Of a stretch of 51,868 nucleotides of DNA, positions 36,392-51,868 are shown in pieces. This stretch comes from Promethearchaeota archaeon (lineage in GTDB: Archaea > Asgardarchaeota > Lokiarchaeia > Sigyniarchaeales > SOKP01). Numbering within the stretch: the first letter of the stretch is position 1; every line of letters begins with the position of its first letter. The stretch covers positions 1 to 51,868 of the forward strand of contig JAHLWH010000122.1 in NCBI GenBank assembly GCA_019058015.1, written 5' to 3'. Position numbers and translations under genes: made by a program. The notes below the pieces were generated by a model that was not told the DNA's origin, ran no database searches, and saw only the letters and a program-made list of their open reading frames with translations.

Positions 36392-38437
36392 TTATCCTAG
36401 GTATTCAATTTCGGTTTGAAGGCGAATATCTCTGGATGAGCTTCCAATAAGAATTTTAAATATTCCTTTCTCTGCTTTCCAAGAGTTGTTTATCTCGTCA
36501 AAAAAAGAAAGAACTCTCTTTTCTAGTTCAAATATGATGGACTTTTTTTCCCCAGCTTCCAACAGAATTTTCTTAAATCCTTTTAGTTCTTTTAACGGTC
36601 TATCTACACTGCATTCAACATCTTGAACATATAATTGAACAACCTCTGCCCCAGCATGATCACCTGAGTTAGTAATATCGACTGACACCGTAAATTTATC
36701 GTCTTCTGATACCATTTTTTTATCGATCTTAAGATTATCATAGGTAAAAGTTGTATAGGATAGACCATGGCCAAAAGGAAAGCGGGGATCAATCTTTTTT
36801 GTATCAAAATGTCGGTATCCAACAAAGATTCCCTCATCATAATAAACTTTTTCATTGCCAGGATAAGTTCTTTTTGAAACATGTGCTGGGGAATCTGAAA
36901 GTTTCTTAGGGAACGTTATTGGAAGTTTTCCTGATGGATTAATATCTCCAAATATGATGTCTGCGATAACATTTCCTGCTTCTTGTCCTGCATACCAAGC
37001 CTCAACAATGGCAGGTACATTTTCTATCCAATCATCCATAGCGATAGGACTACCGTTAATAAGAATGACTATTGTTTTGGGATTTTCTTGAGCAATCTCA
37101 TTAATCAGTTCAATTTGTTCGGGAGGAAGATCAAGTTTTATTTTATCCTTATTTTCTCTATCTCCATATTTTTTGTGATTGAGCCCTGCAAAAACAATGG
37201 CTACATCTGCCTCTGACGGTATATCTATAATTTCCACTTTTTCACTACATTTTTCCTTCAATCCCTTAAGCGGTGTGATTTCATAAAAAGCTCGAATCAT
37301 TGAACTACCACCTCCAAAAGCCATTTTTTTATCTGCATTAGGTCCTAGAACAGCCAACTTTTTGATCTTTTCGATATCTAAGGGCAATAGATTTTTTTTG
37401 TTCTTTAGAAGCACTATTCCTTCTTCAGCTATTTTTCGGGCTACAATCTGATGTTCAGGGGTATTTCTACTGCCCGGTGGGATTGTTTTCTCATCATCTA
37501 AAAGACCGGTAAGAAACATTACCCTTAATAATCGTTTCACATTCTCATTAAGTGAATCTTCCGTAAAATATCCCGCTGTAAGCGCCTCTCTTAATCTTTT
37601 TACCTTATATTTGATGGGGTGTGGCATTTCGAGTGTCATTCCAGCGTTTATACAACTTTCAGTTTTTAAAATATGTCTAGTTGCAAACCAGTCACTTACT
37701 ACAAAACCCCTAAAACCCCATTCTTCCATTAGTCTTTCTTTTAATATGTTTTTGTTTTCACAGCCAAATATACCATTAACCTTGTTATAGCAAGCCATAA
37801 TAGACCATACATCCGCTTCTCGAACAACAGCCTCAAATGCGGGGAGATATATCTCTTGAAGAGCTCTTTCACTTACTTCAGCACTGACTTTAAATCTATT
37901 TAGTTCTTGATTATTACATACATAATGCTTCACACACGCCGCAATTCTCTGACTTTGAATTCCTTTAACAACAGGAACGGCCATTTTTATGTTTAAATGA
38001 GGATCTTCTGTTTGATATTCAAAAGTTCTTCCATTGAGCGGAGTTCTATCAATATTTATACCTGGAGCAAGGAGCATATTAGATCCAACATCTCTTACTT
38101 CTTGCGCTATGGCTACTCCGAATTGCTCAGATAACTCTGGGTTCCAAGTGGCAGTCCTACAAATAGCAGTAGGGAAGTAAGTAGTTTTTTTTATAAAAAA
38201 AGTCCCTAAAGCTCCCACGCCATGTGGACCATCAGTCATTTTGAATTTTAGGAGATTTAATCTTTTTATTTTTTTAGTAAAAAAAAGTCTTGTTCCAGAA
38301 CATATTTTGAATTTTTCTTCTAAAGTTAATCGTCTTAAGAGATCTTCTACTCTTTTTTCCAGATCCAGGTTGTTATCCATAAAAGGTAGTTTTGCAATAT
38401 CTCCTTTAGACAAATCTTTATCTATATTTATTTTCAC
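36392..38437 (-). CDS. GH3 beta-glucosidase with Fn3-like C-terminus
   Basis: MTDGPHG, GRTFEY..EDP, VKHY, FVVSDW (nucleophile), GIVLLKN, PFGHGLSYTTF, ELKGF. Confidence 0.93.
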   Translation of the reverse strand: MKINIDKDLSKGDIAKLPFMDNNLDLEKRVEDLLRRLTLEEKFKICSGTRLFFTKKIKRLNLLKFKMTDGPHGVGALGTFFIKKTTYFPTAICRTATWNPELSEQFGVAIAQEVRDVGSNMLLAPGINIDRTPLNGRTFEYQTEDPHLNIKMAVPVVKGIQSQRIAACVKHYVCNNQELNRFKVSAEVSERALQEIYLPAFEAVVREADVWSIMACYNKVNGIFGCENKNILKERLMEEWGFRGFVVSDWFATRHILKTESCINAGMTLEMPHPIKYKVKRLREALTAGYFTEDSLNENVKRLLRVMFLTGLLDDEKTIPPGSRNTPEHQIVARKIAEEGIVLLKNKKNLLPLDIEKIKKLAVLGPNADKKMAFGGGSSMIRAFYEITPLKGLKEKCSEKVEIIDIPSEADVAIVFAGLNHKKYGDRENKDKIKLDLPPEQIELINEIAQENPKTIVILINGSPIAMDDWIENVPAIVEAWYAGQEAGNVIADIIFGDINPSGKLPITFPKKLSDSPAHVSKRTYPGNEKVYYDEGIFVGYRHFDTKKIDPRFPFGHGLSYTTFTYDNLKIDKKMVSEDDKFTVSVDITNSGDHAGAEVVQLYVQDVECSVDRPLKELKGFKKILLEAGEKKSIIFELEKRVLSFFDEINNSWKAEKGIFKILIGSSSRDIRLQTEIEYLG

Positions 38438-38454
38438 CTAAATTTTAGATTTAT

Positions 38455-40485
38455 TTACTCTATATATTCAATTTCTCCTTTTTGATGGATATCTTTCGAT
38501 GAGCTTCCAACGAGAATATTAAAAGATCCATTCTCTGCTTTCCAACAGGAAGTTTTTTCATCAAAAAAAGAGAGATCTTTCTTTTCTAGTTCAAATACGA
38601 TGGTCTTTTTTTCACCAGAATCCAACTGAACTTTCTTAAAACCTTTTAATTCTTTTAATGGTCTTTCTACACTGCACTCAACATCTTGAACATATAATTG
38701 GACAACCTCTGCTCCAGCGCGATCACCGGAGTTTGTGATATCAACTGACACGGTAAATTTATCATCTCCGGATATTGTTTTCCTGTCGATTTTAAGATTA
38801 TCATATGAGAAAGTCGTATAGGATAAACCATGACCAAAAGGAAAGAGAGGTTCAATATTCTTCGTATCAAAATGGCGATATCCAACAAAAATACCTTCAT
38901 CATAATAAACTTTTTCATTACCGGGATAAGTTCTTGTTGACACATGCGCCGGCGAATCTGATAATTTCTTAGGAAATGTTATTGGTAATTTTCCTGATGG
39001 GTTTACATCTCCAAAAAGAATATCTGCAATAGCGTTTCCTGCTTCCTGTCCAGCATACCAGGCCTCAATAACTGCAGGTATATTTTCTATCCAACCAACC
39101 ATATTAATAGGGCTGCCACTAATAAGAATGACTATTGTTTTAGGATTTTCTTGCACAGTTTTTTTAATCAATTCAATTTGTTCTGAAGGAAGATCAAATG
39201 AATCCCTATCAGAATCTTCGCTATCCATCCCTTTCTCATGATTAAGTCCGGCAAATATAATAACTAAATCCGCTTCTGATGGTGAATTTACAATCTGAAC
39301 CTTATTTCTGCATTTATTTTTCAGTCCTTTAAGAGGTGTAATTTCATAAGGAGGTCGAACCTGTGAGCTGCCACCACCCTCTCCCATTTCTTTATCTGCA
39401 TTTGGTCCGATTACTTTAATTTTTTTAAATGTATCAATATTTAAAGGAAGTAGATTATCTTCATTTTTTAGAAGGACTATTCCTTCTTCAGCTATCTTGC
39501 GAGAGAGAGCTTGATGTTTGGGAGTATTTCTACTGCCAGGTGGGATTGCATTCTCATTATCAAAAAGACCGGTAAGAAACATTATCCTTAGTAATCTTTT
39601 TATGTTCTCATTAAGTGTTTCTTCGGTATATTTTCCTTCTAATAAAGCTTGATTTAATTTTTTTTTTTTATATTTTATTGGCATCGGCATCTCGAGAGTT
39701 AATCCGGCGTTTATGCAGCTTTCAGTGCTTGTCGTTTTAGCTGTTGCGATCCAATCTGAAACAACGAAACCTTTAAAACCCCATTCTTCCATTAACCTTT
39801 CTTTTATTAAATTTTTATGTTCACACCCGTAAATACCATTAACCTTGTTATAACAGCCCATAAAGGACCATGCATCAGCTTCGCGAACCGTCGCCTCAAA
39901 AGCAGGAAGATAGATCTCTTGAAGAGCTCTTTCACTTACTTCAGAACTGACTGTGAATCTATTTATCTCTTGATTATTGCATATATAATGCTTCACACAC
40001 GCCGCAATTTTCTGACTCTGAACACCTCGTACAACGGGAACTGCCATTTTTTTATTAAGATAGGGATCTTCAGTTTGATATTCAAAATTTCTTCCACAGA
40101 GTGGAGTTCTATGAATATTTACGCCAGGTCCGAGAATCATATGATATTCAATATCTCTTACTTCTTGAGCTAAAGCCACTCCGAATTGCTCAGATAACTC
40201 AGGGTTCCAGGTCGCAGTCCTACAAATGGCTGTAGGGAAATAGGTGCATTCTGCATTATTTGAACTGTGAGGTCCAATACCATGAGGTCCATCTGTCATT
40301 TTGAAAGATTTTATTCCAAGTCTCTTTATTGGCTTGGTATAAAAACTTCTTTTCCCTGAGCAGAGAGTGAATTTTTCTTTCAGTGTCAATCTTCTTAAAA
40401 GATCTTCTACTCTTTTTTCTAGATCCAGATTACTGTCCATAAAAGGCAGTGTTTTTATCTCATTATTAGAAAGTTTCTTGTTCAT
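38455..40485 (-). CDS. GH3 beta-glucosidase (tandem paralog)
   Basis: Same motifs: GRNFEY, KHY, SDW. Confidence 0.93.
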   Translation of the reverse strand: MNKKLSNNEIKTLPFMDSNLDLEKRVEDLLRRLTLKEKFTLCSGKRSFYTKPIKRLGIKSFKMTDGPHGIGPHSSNNAECTYFPTAICRTATWNPELSEQFGVALAQEVRDIEYHMILGPGVNIHRTPLCGRNFEYQTEDPYLNKKMAVPVVRGVQSQKIAACVKHYICNNQEINRFTVSSEVSERALQEIYLPAFEATVREADAWSFMGCYNKVNGIYGCEHKNLIKERLMEEWGFKGFVVSDWIATAKTTSTESCINAGLTLEMPMPIKYKKKKLNQALLEGKYTEETLNENIKRLLRIMFLTGLFDNENAIPPGSRNTPKHQALSRKIAEEGIVLLKNEDNLLPLNIDTFKKIKVIGPNADKEMGEGGGSSQVRPPYEITPLKGLKNKCRNKVQIVNSPSEADLVIIFAGLNHEKGMDSEDSDRDSFDLPSEQIELIKKTVQENPKTIVILISGSPINMVGWIENIPAVIEAWYAGQEAGNAIADILFGDVNPSGKLPITFPKKLSDSPAHVSTRTYPGNEKVYYDEGIFVGYRHFDTKNIEPLFPFGHGLSYTTFSYDNLKIDRKTISGDDKFTVSVDITNSGDRAGAEVVQLYVQDVECSVERPLKELKGFKKVQLDSGEKKTIVFELEKKDLSFFDEKTSCWKAENGSFNILVGSSSKDIHQKGEIEYIE

Positions 40486-44456: not shown

Positions 44457-44696
44457 TTGAATAAGATGATTACATTAGATCTTTTACAAAATAATAAAGA
44501 ATTTATTGTTCGCAGGGTTCATGCTGGTTGGCGTGCAAAGACTAGATTGGCAAATCTCGGAATAGTCCCGGGTACAAAAGTGAAAAAATTAAGATCAGCG
44601 CCGTTATTTGGTCCCGTTCAAGTTAAAGTGAAAGGATCTGATTTAGTTATTGGAAGAGGATTAGCTAGAAAAATTTTAGGAGAACTGGTTACATAA
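44457..44696 (+). CDS. feoA: Ferrous iron transport protein A
   Basis: RLANLGIVPGT.V..SAPLFGPVQVKVKGS.LVIGRGLA.KI. Confidence 0.92.
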   Translation: MNKMITLDLLQNNKEFIVRRVHAGWRAKTRLANLGIVPGTKVKKLRSAPLFGPVQVKVKGSDLVIGRGLARKILGELVT

Positions 44697-44822
44697 ATTA
44701 ATGAGTATGATATTAAAAAATTACTCGATTTTTCCGTATCATATTTATAATATTAAATTAGTTATTTTCAAATTGATCTCCATTATATTGATAATTTGAA
44801 TATAAGTTAATTTTAGAGAAAA

Positions 44823-46817
44823 ATGACATATAAAGATCTAACAGAAAGAAAAACATTAAATATTGCATTAGCTGGAAATGCAAATATAGGAAAATCGGTA
44901 ATTTTTAATCAACTTACTGGAATGAACCAGTGTATTGGGAATTGGCCAGGAAAAACCGTAGCGAAATGTGAGGGTAGGGTAACATTTTTAAATTATGATT
45001 TTAATATTGTTGATCTCCCAGGCATTTATTCCTTATCTACGTATTCAATTGAGGAGATCATTTCAAGAGAATTTTTAATAGGTGAAAAAGTAGATTTAAT
45101 AATTAATGTAATAGATGGAACGAATTTAGAGAGGAATTTATTTTTTACGGTTCAGTTAATTGGTTTAAAGCTTCCAATGATCTTGGCAGTTAATCAATTA
45201 GATTTAGTTAGGAAAAGAAAAATAAAGATAAATCTTGATAAATTGGAAAAGATATTTAAAATCCCAGTTATACCTGTCATTGCAGTTCATGGGCGTGGAG
45301 TGCATGAGTTATTAGAAAAAACCATTGAAATGTTTGAAAATAAATTTCAAATACCTAATGAAGATTTCTTCAAGTTTGGTAAGGAAGTAGAAAATGGAAT
45401 TCAGAAGTTAATTGAGGAAATTAATAATTATACTGACGAGTTAAAAGATATCAAATATCCCAGCAGATTCCTTGCGATTAAGATTTTAGAAAAGGATGAT
45501 GAATTAATTGGAAAGATAAAGAAACTCAAACCAGAAATTGTAGATATTGCAGCAGAAATTAGAGAAGAGTTAGAAGAATTACATGGAGAGGATATTAATA
45601 CAATTATTTCAGCAGAAATATATAATCGAATCCATGAAATTATTAACCAGTCGGTTGTTTATGGAGAAAAGCAAAAAAAAGCAACTTGGGCAGATAAATT
45701 AGATCATTTAACAACCCACTCTATTTTTGGTTATGTTCTATTATTTATTATCCTATTTGGGGCATATTGGGTTGTATTTATAGTGGGTGATATTGTTGGG
45801 GGATGGCTAGATGAGATATATGAATTTTTCACGCCTATAGTCTTTAATATATTTGGTGACAATATTGGGACTAATATTTTTTGGAATGGAGCGATGGCGG
45901 GCTTGTTTGGTGGAGTTGGTGGAGTTTTAGTTTATGTTATTCCATTTTTTATAGTAATAGAAATTCTTCAAGATTCTGGTTATTTACCTAGAGCTGCTTT
46001 TATGATGGATAAATTTATGCATCAAGTTGGAGTTCATGGTAAAGCAATTATTCCATTAATTCTCGGCTTTGGCTGTAATGTACCGGGTTGCACTGCTTGT
46101 AAAATCATGGAAACAGAGAGAGAGAAAAAGATTACTGCTTTTTTAACGACATTAGTTCCTTGTGCAGCAGTTATGGCAGTAATAATGGGATTAGTAGCAA
46201 AGCATCTAGGATTTATATATGTTTTAATCTTATATGGTATTGATTTTGCAGTTATTATTTTATTTGGAAAACTTGCAACAAAATTTTCACATGAACCTCA
46301 AACAGAACTAATTATGGAAATGCATGAGTTTAGAAAACCAAATACAAGTGTAATTTTAAAACAAACTTGGTTTAGGAGTAAGGAATTTGTTTATAAAGCG
46401 ATGCCACTTATTATTATTATTGGAATGTTAATGGAAATTATGTTAATGTTTAATTTATTAGAACCAATTAATGTGCTTCTGCAGCCAATTACAGTACTAT
46501 GGTTAGGATTACCGGTAATAACTGGCATTTTTTTAATTTATGGAATATTAAGAAAAGAATTGACTTTAGTATTACTTGAGATTCTGGCAGTTGATATTTT
46601 AGGTATTGCATTAAGTGAATTTATGACACCGATTCAAATGTTTGTGTTTGCCTTGATAACAATGTTATATATCCCGTGTGCTGCAACAATTATTGTATTA
46701 AAGAATGAAACTGGTTGGAAATTTACATTAAAGGTTACTTTTATAGAAGTCGGATTTGCGCTTTTATTGGGAGGCATTGTTAATTGGGGATATATTTTTA
46801 TAACTGGAGGAGGTTAA
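44823..46817 (+). CDS. feoB: Ferrous iron transporter B
   Basis: GNANIGKS, GNWPGKTV, DLPGIYSL, DSGYLPRAAF, GFGCNVP, YIPC. Confidence 0.96.
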   Translation: MTYKDLTERKTLNIALAGNANIGKSVIFNQLTGMNQCIGNWPGKTVAKCEGRVTFLNYDFNIVDLPGIYSLSTYSIEEIISREFLIGEKVDLIINVIDGTNLERNLFFTVQLIGLKLPMILAVNQLDLVRKRKIKINLDKLEKIFKIPVIPVIAVHGRGVHELLEKTIEMFENKFQIPNEDFFKFGKEVENGIQKLIEEINNYTDELKDIKYPSRFLAIKILEKDDELIGKIKKLKPEIVDIAAEIREELEELHGEDINTIISAEIYNRIHEIINQSVVYGEKQKKATWADKLDHLTTHSIFGYVLLFIILFGAYWVVFIVGDIVGGWLDEIYEFFTPIVFNIFGDNIGTNIFWNGAMAGLFGGVGGVLVYVIPFFIVIEILQDSGYLPRAAFMMDKFMHQVGVHGKAIIPLILGFGCNVPGCTACKIMETEREKKITAFLTTLVPCAAVMAVIMGLVAKHLGFIYVLILYGIDFAVIILFGKLATKFSHEPQTELIMEMHEFRKPNTSVILKQTWFRSKEFVYKAMPLIIIIGMLMEIMLMFNLLEPINVLLQPITVLWLGLPVITGIFLIYGILRKELTLVLLEILAVDILGIALSEFMTPIQMFVFALITMLYIPCAATIIVLKNETGWKFTLKVTFIEVGFALLLGGIVNWGYIFITGGG

Positions 46818-46821
46818 TAAA

Positions 46822-47274
46822 TTGGAAACAGTTGATAACGAGTTAAAGAAAATCCCAGAGTCACAGCAAAAGTATCTCGACGCCATCTATTTGATTTCAA
46901 AAACTAAGAAGGCAGGGTGGGTTTCAAACAAAGAGATTAAAGAATTTTTAAAAGTCCAACCATCATCTGTAACAAATATGCTGCGCCAGTTAAAAGAAGG
47001 TGGATTTATATCATGGACACCAAGAAAAGGGATCAGACTTACTAAAGAGGGTAAAAAAGTCGCAACGAGATTAGAACAGATCGACTCTCTTTTAAGGGAT
47101 TTCTTTTCAATGATTTTAAAAATAAAAGATGAGGAATTAGTAACTTCTTTATCTTGCGCGGTTGAGCACCACATCTTTGAGCAGAAAGATGAAGTTTATC
47201 AAAATTTAAAAAAATTTGTAGGAAAGAGAGAAGATTTACTTAAATTTTTGGAAGAATTAGATGATTCGGAGTAG
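46822..47274 (+). CDS. DtxR/MntR-family metal-dependent repressor
   Basis: YL.AIY..SN.EI...L.V.PSSVT.ML..L...G..LT..G..C..EH; adjacent to feoAB. Confidence 0.88.
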   Translation: METVDNELKKIPESQQKYLDAIYLISKTKKAGWVSNKEIKEFLKVQPSSVTNMLRQLKEGGFISWTPRKGIRLTKEGKKVATRLEQIDSLLRDFFSMILKIKDEELVTSLSCAVEHHIFEQKDEVYQNLKKFVGKREDLLKFLEELDDSE

Positions 47275-48359: not shown

Positions 48360-48569
48360 ATGAGGATTATAACAATTAACCTTCCACACAGATATTTAGA
48401 TGCCATTCAATGTTTAATAGAGCTAGGTTATTATCCTTCTCGAAGTGAAGCTATAAGAATAGCTCTTCGTGAATTTTTAGGTAGCGAGATAGAAATGTTT
48501 TCGAAACTAGAGAAAGGATATTTTGAGAAGATTAAAAGATCTCAATTGAAATCGATGATTGCTCTCTAA
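48360..48569 (+). CDS. Ribbon-helix-helix (CopG/Arc/MetJ) protein
   Basis: IITINLP..YLDAI..L...G.YPSRSEAIR.ALREFL. Confidence 0.88.
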   Translation: MRIITINLPHRYLDAIQCLIELGYYPSRSEAIRIALREFLGSEIEMFSKLEKGYFEKIKRSQLKSMIAL

Positions 48570-48595
48570 ATATAAACCTTTTTTTTTCTCTTCTA

Positions 48596-49552
48596 TTATA
48601 ACTCTTTATTGTCTTCAGGCTCAGGCTTCTGACAGATCGCTAGATAAGAACCTCCCTCTACATAACACATCTCTAAACCCTCTCCTTCTAACTGACGGTC
48701 TATTTTTATAATATCTCTTGGCGAAAATTTCCTAGAGTCGAATACATCGATGGAATTAAGCCGCGGCACATCCTTTATCGGATGAATCCTGATTATGGGG
48801 TTATCATTGACTCTAACTTTATAAAGATTAATCAATTCGTCAATCCCTTTGAACTCGGTTATTTTATTTCTGGAAAGGTCAAGCTCAAATAGGGTTGTGA
48901 GATTTCCCAGCCCTTTGATTTCGGTAATATTATTATTTGACAAGTTAATTGTGTGAATGTTTTCGAGGTTGTTAAGTCCCTTGATCTCGGTTATTTGGTT
49001 ATTTTCTAAATATAAATCTCTTAGATTTTTGAGGGTATCTAATCCTTTAATCTCGGTTATTTGGTTATCAGATAATCTAAGGTAATCTAAATTAACTAAG
49101 TTATTTAGCCCTTTAATTTCTGAGATCTGGTTTTTATGCAATCTTAAGATTACTAAATTGTGGAGATCTTCCAAACCCTCAACTTCTTTTATATGATTAC
49201 CGGCTAGATCAAGGTCAGTTAATCTTTTAAGATTTTCAAGGCCTTCTATTCTTTTTATGTTATCGCTATTCATACTTAATTGTTGGAGCTTCTTGAGTGA
49301 ATCTACCCACTTCAAATCATGAATATGTGTTCCTGAAAGGGAGAATTTCGAAAGATGAGTAAAATTAGAAAATACAGATGGATTGGTAATATCTATGTTC
49401 GATATATATAAAGTCATTACCCTTCCTTGCCAATCCAAAAAAAAACTTAAAAAACTTCTCTTATAATTGTAATCCTCTGTAATATCGTAGAGTATTTTTC
49501 TTTCATAATCATCAGAAATTCTATTGATTTCTTTAATTATCTTTTCTCTCAC
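48596..49552 (-). CDS. Leucine-rich repeat protein (22-aa SDS22-type repeats)
   Basis: About 8 repeats of LxxLxLxxNxIxEIKGLxxLxN. Confidence 0.9.
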   Translation of the reverse strand: MREKIIKEINRISDDYERKILYDITEDYNYKRSFLSFFLDWQGRVMTLYISNIDITNPSVFSNFTHLSKFSLSGTHIHDLKWVDSLKKLQQLSMNSDNIKRIEGLENLKRLTDLDLAGNHIKEVEGLEDLHNLVILRLHKNQISEIKGLNNLVNLDYLRLSDNQITEIKGLDTLKNLRDLYLENNQITEIKGLNNLENIHTINLSNNNITEIKGLGNLTTLFELDLSRNKITEFKGIDELINLYKVRVNDNPIIRIHPIKDVPRLNSIDVFDSRKFSPRDIIKIDRQLEGEGLEMCYVEGGSYLAICQKPEPEDNKEL

Positions 49553-49692
49553 CCGTATTTTTTTTTATTTTTTTTCTATTAATTTTTCTCCTTGAACTCT
49601 TTAATTCAAACCACTTTTTTTAAAAATTTCTTCTAATAGATAAAAAAACGTTTAAATATTTAAAATCTTACACGCTGTATGTTTTATAATTA

Positions 49693-50010
49693 TTATATAT
49701 CTGCGAACTCCCGAACGTTTGGGAACCAATGTGGTAAAACCAAGAAATCAGAGGTAAACCAAGGCTGAAACTTAATGTCTATTGTCTCGAAATTATAATC
49801 ATCCGGATTCCTAAACCAATCATCAATTACGGCAATATGTTCATCAATCATTATACTTAGAAAAATTGTAATCCCTATTTTGTCTATATCATGGACATCT
49901 TTCTTAATAATATAATAATCATACCACCAATCCCAAAGTTCTTTTTTAGCAGGGGACAACTCCTTCAGTGCGACCTCTTTATTGAAATAATCAATTGATA
50001 TTATCTTCAA
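49693..50010 (-). CDS. Hypothetical protein
   Basis: 105-aa ORF with protein-like composition; TTG start uncertain. Confidence 0.45.
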   Translation of the reverse strand: MKIISIDYFNKEVALKELSPAKKELWDWWYDYYIIKKDVHDIDKIGITIFLSIMIDEHIAVIDDWFRNPDDYNFETIDIKFQPWFTSDFLVLPHWFPNVREFADI

Positions 50011-50227
50011 AATCTTAGGACACGGAATAGGAATTGGCTCTTTAGGTTTGTTAAATTGGTTTCTTTATAAAGCTAGAACAAATAAGGTTAATTATGGGAA
50101 AGTAACTATTAATTTCAATAACTATGGCGAATTGGATGCAGAAACAATTGGATTTGCAATCGGTCTTATATTCTTAACGGGCTATTCAATTTGGGATATA
50201 ATTAAATATTTAAAAGAACATTATTAA
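49994..50227 (+). CDS. Small two-TM membrane protein lacking a canonical start (ATT start or 5'-truncated)
   Basis: IDIIFKILGHGIGIGSLGLLNWFLY..ETIGFAIGLIFLTGYSIWDIIKYLKEHY*; the stop is 3 bp before the next ATG. Confidence 0.4.
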   Translation: MDIIFKILGHGIGIGSLGLLNWFLYKARTNKVNYGKVTINFNNYGELDAETIGFAIGLIFLTGYSIWDIIKYLKEHY

Positions 50228-50230
50228 GAA

Positions 50231-50329
50231 ATGAAAACCAAATCTGAAAGGAAAATCGAGAAATTAAGAAAAGCGATAATGAAAGAACTCAAACATTATT
50301 TCAAAAAGAGAGAGAAAAATGATAGATAA
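50231..50329 (+). CDS. Tiny basic ORF (32 aa)
   Basis: MKTKSERKIEKLRKAIMKELKHYFKKREKNDR*; overlaps the next start. Confidence 0.4.
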   Translation: MKTKSERKIEKLRKAIMKELKHYFKKREKNDR

Positions 50330-50543
50330 AAAAATTCTTGATTGGAAAATAAAGACCAAAGAGTTTAAGGATAAAACAGATTATTTAGATGCAAAAAGTA
50401 AGGGGAAGGATTGTTCTAAATGTAATGGCATTGGAGTTATACAATTGAAAAGGGTTAAACCTAATGATCTATATATTACTCAAATATGCTCTAAATGTAA
50501 TGGAAACGGTTTTATAGAAAAAAAGAGAGAAAATGATAGATAA
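50319..50543 (+). CDS. Small Zn-finger protein (DnaJ-type CxxCxGxG, two copies)
   Basis: CSKCNGIG and CSKCNGNG. Confidence 0.7.
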   Translation: MIDKKILDWKIKTKEFKDKTDYLDAKSKGKDCSKCNGIGVIQLKRVKPNDLYITQICSKCNGNGFIEKKRENDR

Positions 50544-50739
50544 TTCAATAATGGTTAGGGCTTGTGTTTTGCAATGCAAAGAGTATGTAATTATCGACCC
50601 GATAGACCCGAATAATCAAGATTTGATTAATATGTTTGAAATGAAACATTTTGGACATCCACTCGCCACAATTCCACTTTCAGAAGTTGAGGGCTATTGC
50701 AAGAATGTAGAAAATGAATTATTCACTTCAATTTATTAA
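50533..50739 (+). CDS. Small putative metal-binding protein (CxxxC...HxxH)
   Basis: ACVLQCKEY..FEMKHFGHP. Confidence 0.65.
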   Translation: MIDNSIMVRACVLQCKEYVIIDPIDPNNQDLINMFEMKHFGHPLATIPLSEVEGYCKNVENELFTSIY

Positions 50740-50818
50740 CCCAAAAAATTAAATATTTCGACAATATTATTATTTGTGGGATAAAATATGAGTAAAACTT
50801 AAAAATCTCGATTTTTAA

Positions 50819-51037
50819 ATGAATGCAAATAATTTAAAATATAATAAACAAATTAATCTAAGTTTTAGAACTTACAACATAATTCCAAATATAAGGAAAT
50901 TATCTGGAAAAATATATCCAGAGTTCGAAAATGCAATAAAATATCTTTCTAATAAGGAACTAAGCGAAATCAATAGTTTCTTAATGGAAATGAAATATAA
51001 AATAGATAAATTAGAGGAAATTCAAAACAAAAAATAA
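50819..51037 (+). CDS. Hypothetical protein
   Basis: 72-aa ORF; no recognised motif. Confidence 0.45.
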   Translation: MNANNLKYNKQINLSFRTYNIIPNIRKLSGKIYPEFENAIKYLSNKELSEINSFLMEMKYKIDKLEEIQNKK

Positions 51038-51310
51038 AATTAAAAAGAGATTGATTAAAAATAATTAAAATAAAGAAAAAACAACTAATTAAGATAATTG
51101 AAATAACTTTGGTTTGTGCTGTAGTATATATTATTGTTAGAATATTGTTCACAATATTGTTCAGATTGTTGTCGGGAGTTTTATGAATTTTGTGGTGAAA
51201 AACAATATTAAAGTTTATTTTTTTCAATCCCTAAATCGTTTCGGTTTATAGGAATTAAAATAAAAATAAAAAGGGATTCCTGCTACTCTGGATTTTTGTC
51301 TTTTGGTTGG

Positions 51311-51868
51311 GTGCGACGTGATGTTATATGATTGAATGCGAGACCTTGATTAGAATCAAGAAATCGCCTTTTAAGTTGGATAAATGTGCCTACCTGAATG
51401 TGCGTTGTTGGCAACGACAAGGTGCAAAGCTTCAGGGACAATGTATTGACAGCGGAAACTACATTCTGGCTGCAAGCTAGGCAAGACCCCTATGGTAAAC
51501 GGAAGTGAACTTGCGATAAACCTCGTAAAAGCAAAGAGGCGAAAAGTAGTGATACGCCTTGCCAAAATGGCAACACTGTCTGTAGATATTACTCTAACCT
51601 TAATATCTATCTAACCGATGTACAGTCGGGGGAAAGCAAGTACCTAAGGGGGTTGATGAAAGTCGATCATGTGGAACACGGTAAACCCGATAAACCCCAT
51701 ACATGGATATACATGGAATGGTATCCCGACCGCGAGGAAGGGGGAAGGTTTAGCGGGCAAAGGAACTAAGAGGAAGCGAATGCCAATCTATATTGGATTG
51801 GATAGGGTCTACTATATTAAATTTATAGTAGTAGATACCCAACTCGAAAGGGTGCTGACTTCGAAAGT
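51311..51868 (+). mobile_element. Group II intron, 5' portion (domain I onward; IIB/CL-like), truncated by the window end
   Basis: Begins GTGCG(ACGTG) with an abrupt rise in GC and many hairpins. Motifs ggaacacggtaaaccc, cgaccgcgaggaagggg, aagcgaatgcc..ggatagg and actcgaaagggtgctgac are typical of CL-type introns. Loop CTAACC (51594-51599) pairs with flank GGTTGG (51305-51310). Confidence 0.85.

Follow-up and report, generated by a model that had tools for sequence, protein, structure and literature searches.

Genomic context and assembly of the locus

The window analyzed here, a stretch of 51,868 bp, is contig C117 of an archaeal genome (G000) comprising 3.84 Mb in 283 contigs. The Asgard origin suspected in an initial annotation, which was made from the letters alone, was confirmed by a look-up of host proteins: seven of the ten were present in the collection used, and one protein encoded in the window and one encoded on a second contig, C80, clustered at 90% identity with Candidatus Lokiarchaeota sequences. 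The end of the window is occupied by the 5' part (558 nt) of a group IIB intron (51311..51868, + strand), which covers domains I-III and the start of domain IV, with inferred boundaries for domains II and III. The rest of the intron corresponds to bases 143-1833 of C80, for a joined length of ~2,249 nt. Directly upstream lies the 5' half of a small-RNA-like element of ~120 nt (51274..51310, + strand), which was delimited using empty copies, family distribution, covariation and strand bias, and whose 3' half resumes after the intron at base 1834 of C80. Farther upstream are two tandem paralogous ORFs of ~680 aa (36392-40485), presumably GH3 glycosidase-like, and a run of genes (44457-47274) that we take to be FeoA-FeoB-metal regulator-like.

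The intron and the RNA gene form part of an island of ~5.5 kb (left part 48562..51868, with no strand assigned; end at C80:2357), which was defined by the adjacency of its flanks in congeners and by Pfam matches and also contains an LRR gene, a 105-aa ORF and four small + strand ORFs. The array of ORFs resembling a mobile element that had been pointed out beside the intron corresponds to an island of small ORFs missing from relatives. The island-flanking genes are 33 bases apart in G001, G002 and G004 according to the junction sequence, and in G003 according to match coordinates. An 8-bp direct repeat bounds the island (window 48554-48561 and C80 ~2328-2335). The island alters the last codons of an RHH gene and interrupts a small ORF whose reading frame runs on in G002. 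No integrase gene was found on C117 or C80, and comparison of six island ORFs with PHROGs returned weak zinc-finger-type matches only.

The last 142 bp of the window (51727..51868, + strand) overlap the start of C80 with 7 mismatches, all of them transversions, two of which compensate each other (A-T/T-A). L131, a relative of full length (2,244 nt) found in a different metagenome, is colinear with the joined sequence, with identities of 95% to the window part and 94% to the C80 part. Since this relative agrees with the window and not with C80 at all 7 mismatch positions, the mismatches do not prove two intron variants; the first bases of C80 probably contain errors, and the two contigs are most simply read as one intron of ~2,249 nt. 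Synteny in four congeners and the full-length relative also show that C117 and C80 flank one island. The number of copies in the genome, which the initial annotation had proposed to count, is probably one. C80 holds the sole RVT_1 match and the sole RF00029 match of the genome. A chimeric contig end, which would have undermined the initial proposal, is ruled out by contigs of three studies that cross the 5' junction, one of which may be the source sample (run X1).

It is rather unlikely that C117 and C80 are instead the ends of two intron copies, inserted in a type-A and a type-B paralog and separated by unassembled DNA in a larger island. Such an arrangement would account for the 7 mismatches with their compensatory pair, for the different paralog types of the 5' RNA half in the window and the 3' half on C80, and for a contig (C273) that stops one base short of the insertion site. 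However, besides the agreement of the full-length relative with the window, run X1 is without G>T changes and gives a rough depth of 7.3 on the intron contig versus ~10 on the flank, and neither a type-A 3' half nor a type-B 5' half beside a core was found in the genome. C273 is disfavored as a second intron copy because the base at -1 differs in its G004 orthologue, and this accounts for the contig break with no need for an intron.

Intron boundaries, domains and encoded protein

The GTGCG sequence at 51311, taken as the intron start from the outset, was verified independently by two empty copies of the element in the same genome (C135 and C221), in which the end of the window exon is joined directly to the sequence that follows the intron on C80. 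The 3' end of the intron is ACTCGAC, at base 1833 of C80, and both the 5' GUGYG and the 3' AXX(X)XRAY consensus boundaries (PMC7923331) are therefore present. As the initial annotation had suggested, Rfam covariance models were applied and the sequence beyond the contig end was examined for a reverse transcriptase (RT)/maturase ORF and for domains V-VI; both support its identification of a group II intron. The window contains a match to group-II-D1D4-7 (RF02012; 51367..51546, + strand; 61.4 bits against a cut-off of 34, E 2.7e-10), which corresponds to the domain I fold of class IIB. The overlapping contig C80 contains the RT ORF and a match of 71.6 bits to RF00029 (C80:1757-1833, outside the window) that represents domains V-VI with the AGC triad. 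The triad and the branch-site helix are intact in the C80 part.

The intron-encoded ORF on C80 is intact and specifies a protein of 486 aa with RVT_N, RVT_1 and GIIM matches over cut-off and a YADD motif. No profile match to an endonuclease (HNH) was detected in this ORF, and its score for TIGR04416 was 261.7 bits, under the cut-off of 300 for that model. The best solved structure for the protein is the 6ME0 maturase (E 7.7e-78), which we take to be that of T.el4h from Thermosynechococcus, of the CL class. Among plasmid-borne bacterial proteins, the best match has ~40% identity. Some 110 proteins with at least 50% identity rank ahead of the first endonuclease-bearing relatives, and HNH occurs among the relatives only in those of ~42% identity. 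The protein thus appears to be of the chloroplast-like (CL) type, as judged from RVT_N and the best matches; the C-terminal endonuclease and ~600-aa length of CL1 proteins are not present. Membership in the IIC or IIC-attC introns, which have an EBS1 of 3-4 bp, no EBS2 and an upstream hairpin, is contradicted by an EBS1 of 6 bp and a covarying EBS2. The RT is under purifying selection, because the dN/dS of its gene was 0.14-0.17 in three pairwise comparisons.

Exon recognition

The pairings between intron and exon were evaluated with related introns from 16 other genomes of the family (120 searched), which are inserted at varied sites. In a set of 16 introns, the loop of each was compared with its own exon and with permuted targets. 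Intron L071/L151, in which a nested intron replaces the EBS1 region, was left out, and L141 was additionally left out for the loop that had been proposed as EBS2 (n=15).

The stem at 51583..51609 (+ strand), which had been described as presenting CTAACC for pairing with the exon, does fold, and the loop (51594-51599) pairs at 6 of 6 positions, with one G-U, with GGTTGG at the exon end (IBS1; 51305..51310, + strand), a junction that is seen directly in the empty copies C135 and C221. The homologous loops formed 89 of 96 possible pairs with their own exon ends, compared to 46.8 with permuted targets (p<1e-4), and 45 of 48 compared to 21.1 when one intron per target type was used (n=8). CTAACC is therefore the true EBS1. 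The EBS1 of L141 pairs at only 5 of 6 positions.

The assignment of EBS2 had to be revised. The AAGAC at 51483-51487, presented by a hairpin at 51478..51492 (+ strand), is complementary to GTCTT at 51298-51302 as had been reported, yet the homologous loop ignores the target (45 of 75 pairs against 45.4 with permuted targets, p=0.71; n=15) and reads CAAAACC and CAAGATC in the two same-target introns L131 and L141. Domain I contains six perfect 5-mer complements to exon positions -15 to -7, so one match of this kind is expected by chance, and the hairpin is a conserved intron element that does not read the target. The true EBS2 is instead the loop at 51525-51535 of the hairpin 51521..51539 (+ strand), with pairing bases from 51527, for which 78 of 80 pairs were formed against 59.8 with permuted targets (p<1e-4; 16 introns). 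This tracking of the target persists when each target type is represented by a single intron (n=8). The loop is identical in the three same-target introns for which the 5' part is available (the window, L131 and L141). Its counterpart, IBS2, is the second U-tract of the target core (51296..51304, + strand), with which the window loop forms 7 of 9 pairs in the family register, five of them contiguous and with two central mismatches.

The A at 51634 (51634..51634, + strand) was identified as EBS3 by column comparison and is complementary to the first base of the 3' exon (T). Bases in this column are complementary in all seven introns with both ends known, as A-T in four and G-C in three, which indicates EBS3-IBS3 rather than delta-delta'. 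Target recognition is hence of the IIB type (PMC7923331), with EBS1, EBS2 and EBS3.

The target element

The interrupted element is ~100-135 bases long and consists of a closing stem (5' strand at 51274-51285), a U-rich core (51288-51307, invariant), a hairpin, a C/U-rich strand and a U-run, with a second hairpin in most genera. The intron is inserted in the hairpin after the core, one nucleotide into the 5' arm. The exact 20-mer of the core gave 338 matches in 124 of 135 genomes of the family, whereas the reversed 20-mer gave none in the genus of the window genome or throughout the family table. Copies number 1-12 per genome, and BLAST located the element in 35 of 36 other family genomes as against 1 of 24 outside the family. 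Five non-RNA matches were dropped from the copy set, and 65 empty copies were analyzed for reading frames and upstream words; part of the core's invariance is built in, because the core itself was used to select the copies. Partial or hybrid copies that break at the core also occur in the window genome, namely C76:748-776 (5' part only), C221 (3' part without its stem partner) and C273 (contig end at -1).

In a structure test with 28 copies, 92.4% of cells were paired and two-sided changes occurred at 11 of 20 pairs. None of 500 shuffles scored as high, a control that related sequences can beat, and slid controls reached 34-55%. Non-canonical pairs inside helices selected for Watson-Crick pairing comprised 21 G-U against 4 A-C (a cruder first count, at 5 against 4, was uninformative) and favor the U-rich strand, which is also the strand of the intron. 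Searching 10 element loci against Rfam to an E value of 5 returned three weak matches, all far under cut-offs, and no family. The genome was also searched for an antisense partner of the core, and none was present besides the copies themselves and one match with 3 mismatches. Considered together, the conserved sequence and folding suggest that the target is an RNA gene, that is, an RNA-like structured element with a near-invariant U-rich core.

The initial annotation had tentatively placed the target on the antisense strand of the end of a protein gene, from a minus-strand frame ending in QPKDKNPE. The frame is indeed readable through the core, but this interpretation does not hold and is extremely improbable: in the set of 65 empty copies, the upstream open stretch of this frame never exceeds 47 codons and is 0 codons long in 19, an ATG is present in the frame in only 3, third codon positions are invariant, and changes in hairpin length shift the frame.

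We also regard it as quite unlikely that the target is a DNA element, either an attachment site or a small mobile element, non-autonomous and folded in single-stranded form, with an intron comparable to those targeting attC sites (IIC-attC) or IS elements. The range of 1 to 12 copies, the half copies and hybrids with breaks at the core (C76, C221 and the window) and the location of the own-genus copies in patchwork regions would be consistent with such an element. An RNA, on the other hand, is favored by the 21 to 4 bias of wobble pairs toward one strand, freely varying hairpin loop lengths, the covarying closing stem and the U-run after the stem, and no tyrosine recombinase gene was found on the G000 contigs with examined copies or beside the G004 copies.

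A AAAATAGG(G) word recurs 10-40 bases ahead of the closing stem, for example in the window (51247-51253), L024 and L031, and may be a promoter element or provide an alternative pairing. AAAATAGG is complementary to an internal CCTATTT in 17 of 65 copies, compared to 4.9 in shuffles and 14.5 when permuted among copies; the pairing was not counted as structure given the lack of enrichment over the permutation. In viral collections the core 20-mer had three matches, of which one was RNA-like and two were chance. A copy comprising the core, hairpin and C-rich strand is located on L148, an IMG/VR contig of 224,826 bases filed as viral.

Recurrence of insertion at the same base

The same base of the element is occupied in three other cases. 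In G002, another species of the genus, occupancy is seen at the 3' junction, and the intron there is 86% identical, with an RT gene interrupted by a stop. The RT of L131 is intact, and the 5' half of its RNA is complementary to the 3' half. In L141 the 5' part is 85% identical and the exon ends in a GGTTAG variant. These same-site relatives are 5-15% diverged, and the introns of the window, L131 and L141 form one clade (support 95/99) in a tree of 17 introns. The upstream flanks differ between the same-site introns, which indicates that different paralogs were hit, and the junction contigs come from three studies. Introns of one lineage thus recur at the exact base in different paralogs and hosts.

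Occupied sites are few: of 135 genomes in the family, one has the 5' junction, and of 154 in the order, two have the 3' junction; fragmented assemblies would hide some cases. The order-wide pattern for the 3' junction had 15 matches, 13 of which were chance. A pattern scan of metagenomes, whose set is biased towards one RNA variant (hairpin starting GTGCG), yielded at least 50 stretches, comprising 2 intron junctions, 3 chance matches and otherwise RNA copies with a hairpin of that kind. Viral collections contained no intron junction and no relative of the intron-encoded protein. Two perfect targets in the window genome are still empty, so homing is not saturating. Outside the same-site clade, the nearest relatives have unrelated targets; the specialization is therefore shallow, and the number of occurrences is inflated by common descent. 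The retained pairing between intron and exon had been read as a sign of a recent, splicing-competent insertion; as the target core is near-invariant in the host family and hardly changes, the pairing is uninformative on age. The divergence of the same-site relatives and the stop in one RT gene likewise weaken that reading.

Proposed mode of propagation

We consider it probable that the window carries an endonuclease-less, CL-like group IIB intron from a predominantly Asgard clade, one sub-lineage of which has its three EBS tuned to the near-invariant U-rich core of a multi-copy structured RNA gene, ~120 nt in length, of one Lokiarchaeia family. By analogy with the known biology of IIB introns, the intron would be transcribed from the promoter of the RNA gene or by read-through from the small ORFs, and the maturase would help it splice. 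The RNP would then reverse-splice into single-stranded DNA of an empty paralog at the replication fork without an endonuclease, and reverse transcription would be primed by the nascent strand. Reverse splicing of an En-minus intron into single-stranded DNA at forks is described for RmInt1 (PMC8914252, PMC8632793), and the mechanism of En-minus introns is also treated in PMC7923331. The intron would gain a target that rarely mutates and is present in 1-12 copies per genome, sometimes on variable islands, and empty paralogs, together with the restored RNA if splicing works, would buffer the host.

The 5' RNA half in the window and the 3' half on C80 are of different paralog types, so the spliced RNA of this copy would have no matching closing stem. 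The hybrid most simply reflects recombination through intron copies or the shared core, and this intron copy may not give a normal RNA. The intron could also be mobile in origin but without useful splicing here, as a parasite in a dispensable, already broken paralog comparable to RmInt1. We hold this to be possible but on the whole somewhat unlikely. It would agree with the unmatched halves and the stop in the RT of the G002 copy, as well as with the absence of an intron from C135, a copy that is fixed by synteny and shared at 99% identity by three congeners; RmInt1 is likewise described as barely splicing from its IS target (PMC8632793). The intact RT and mutually complementary RNA halves of L131 argue against it, as do the intact EBS1-3, AGC triad and branch-site helix of the present copy and the dN/dS of ~0.15.

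Comparison with known introns

Repeated targets are known for group II introns and include IS elements, other introns, terminators and attC sites. The target class observed here, the invariant core of a small orphan RNA and not an IS, terminator, attC or tRNA, is unusual. No description of the element or of an intron within it was found in a literature search that covered few subscription journals; the intron class itself is known, and what sets this case apart is its precisely defined target. The sparseness of group II introns in archaea, to which the initial annotation appealed, carries less weight than was implied, as cases from Lokiarchaeia and other Asgard archaea have been published (Vosseberg et al. 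2023, PMC9887622; Mattick et al. 2024, bioRxiv 10.1101/2024.12.10.627823). The published Asgard introns resemble the window intron in host group, in having one or two copies per genome and in the mention of 'a separate CL type' among them; in the available portions of these reports they are described by proteins and Rfam hits and not by insertion sites, and the window intron may already figure in those sets.

Archaeal classes of intron-encoded proteins, including those of the CL1A/CL1B introns of Methanosarcina, are surveyed in PMC8919778. The CL IIB introns (that of the 6ME0 maturase and Methanosarcina CL1A/CL1B) share with the window intron the GUGYG start, the AXXXRAY end, EBS1/EBS2/EBS3, the RVT_N, RVT_1 and GIIM protein and the match to domains V-VI. 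The window intron differs from CL1 in the lack of an endonuclease, in a protein of 486 aa instead of ~600 and in a small RNA gene as target. RmInt1 of Sinorhizobium meliloti is an En-minus intron that retrohomes into a target repeated within the genome (ISRm2011-2), as the window intron is predicted to do, but its target is a transposase gene and not a non-coding structured element with strong host conservation. The IIC and IIC-attC introns, and IIB introns beside attC (PMC7923331), likewise have a repeated, structured, non-coding landing site; IIC introns, however, read an upstream hairpin with an EBS1 of 3-4 bp and no EBS2, whereas the window intron reads sequence and has the hairpin downstream.

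Group II introns within plastid tRNA genes (PMC3607583) are likewise situated at a fixed base of a small structured RNA gene, but they are organellar, vertically stable and in an essential tRNA, in contrast to the patchy, mobile lineage of the window in an orphan archaeal RNA. The spliceosomal introns in fungal U6, U2, U5 and U1 snRNA genes (PMC5855946) likewise interrupt a small U-rich RNA where it is most conserved. This is an analogy only, as those introns are spliceosomal and in proven snRNAs, while that of the window is a group II intron in an RNA-like element.

Possible relation to Sm-bound RNAs

The core contains AUUUUUG, the canonical (U2-type) Sm site (PMC12359035). Because this 7-mer occurs 3,757 times in the window genome, only its invariance in the element is notable. 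A covarying hairpin follows the Sm-like site, and in RNAalifold the core itself also forms a weak hairpin, one without two-sided changes. Three genes with LSM domains are present in the genome, which means that partners are available and nothing more; archaeal Sm proteins are described as binding U-rich RNA (PMC3710371). On a speculative and improbable reading, the target would be an expressed small RNA of Asgard archaea bound by Sm/Lsm proteins, a functional counterpart or forerunner of the U-rich snRNAs of eukaryotes, and the intron lineage would read its Sm-like site and splice out. A single RNA-processing event would then bring together an active group II ribozyme, an RNA of the Sm class and Sm proteins in the prokaryotes most closely related to eukaryotes, and in vitro experiments could test a step on the way to the spliceosome.

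The intron provides indirect evidence on the RNA because it lies on the strand favored by the wobble pairs. If the RNA is bound by Sm proteins, the insertion would be a striking link to snRNP evolution; if it is not, the intron would be a selfish ribozyme that exploits a host-conserved multi-copy site. Because the exact target, both empty and filled alleles, and the entire intron along with its EBS set are known, this case lends itself to direct assays of how an Asgard intron splices and homes.

Other introns of the clade

Five close relatives of the intron-encoded protein are from named genomes, two labeled Promethearchaeota, two uncultured archaeon and one Patescibacteria. The last is a 65%-identical intron (L040) on a 3.5-kb contig, for which either mis-binning or transfer may be responsible. 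A sister clade (8 introns in the tree, support 100/100) inserts just 3' of TATA-box-like words (TTTAAA/TATAAA followed by an A-run), with EBS2 reading the TATA-like word and EBS1 the A-run, and may consist of promoter-targeting group II introns. Its loci are L150 and L154-L160, and also L067, and the genomes are G009, G127, G075, G123, G121, G024, G136, G083 and G092. Two related introns with different EBS sets (L039:2341 and L043:2342) are located 45 bases apart in one gene that is putatively transposase-like. Twintrons, in which one intron is nested in another, are common in the clade (L153:1427-1443, L150, L151 and L041).
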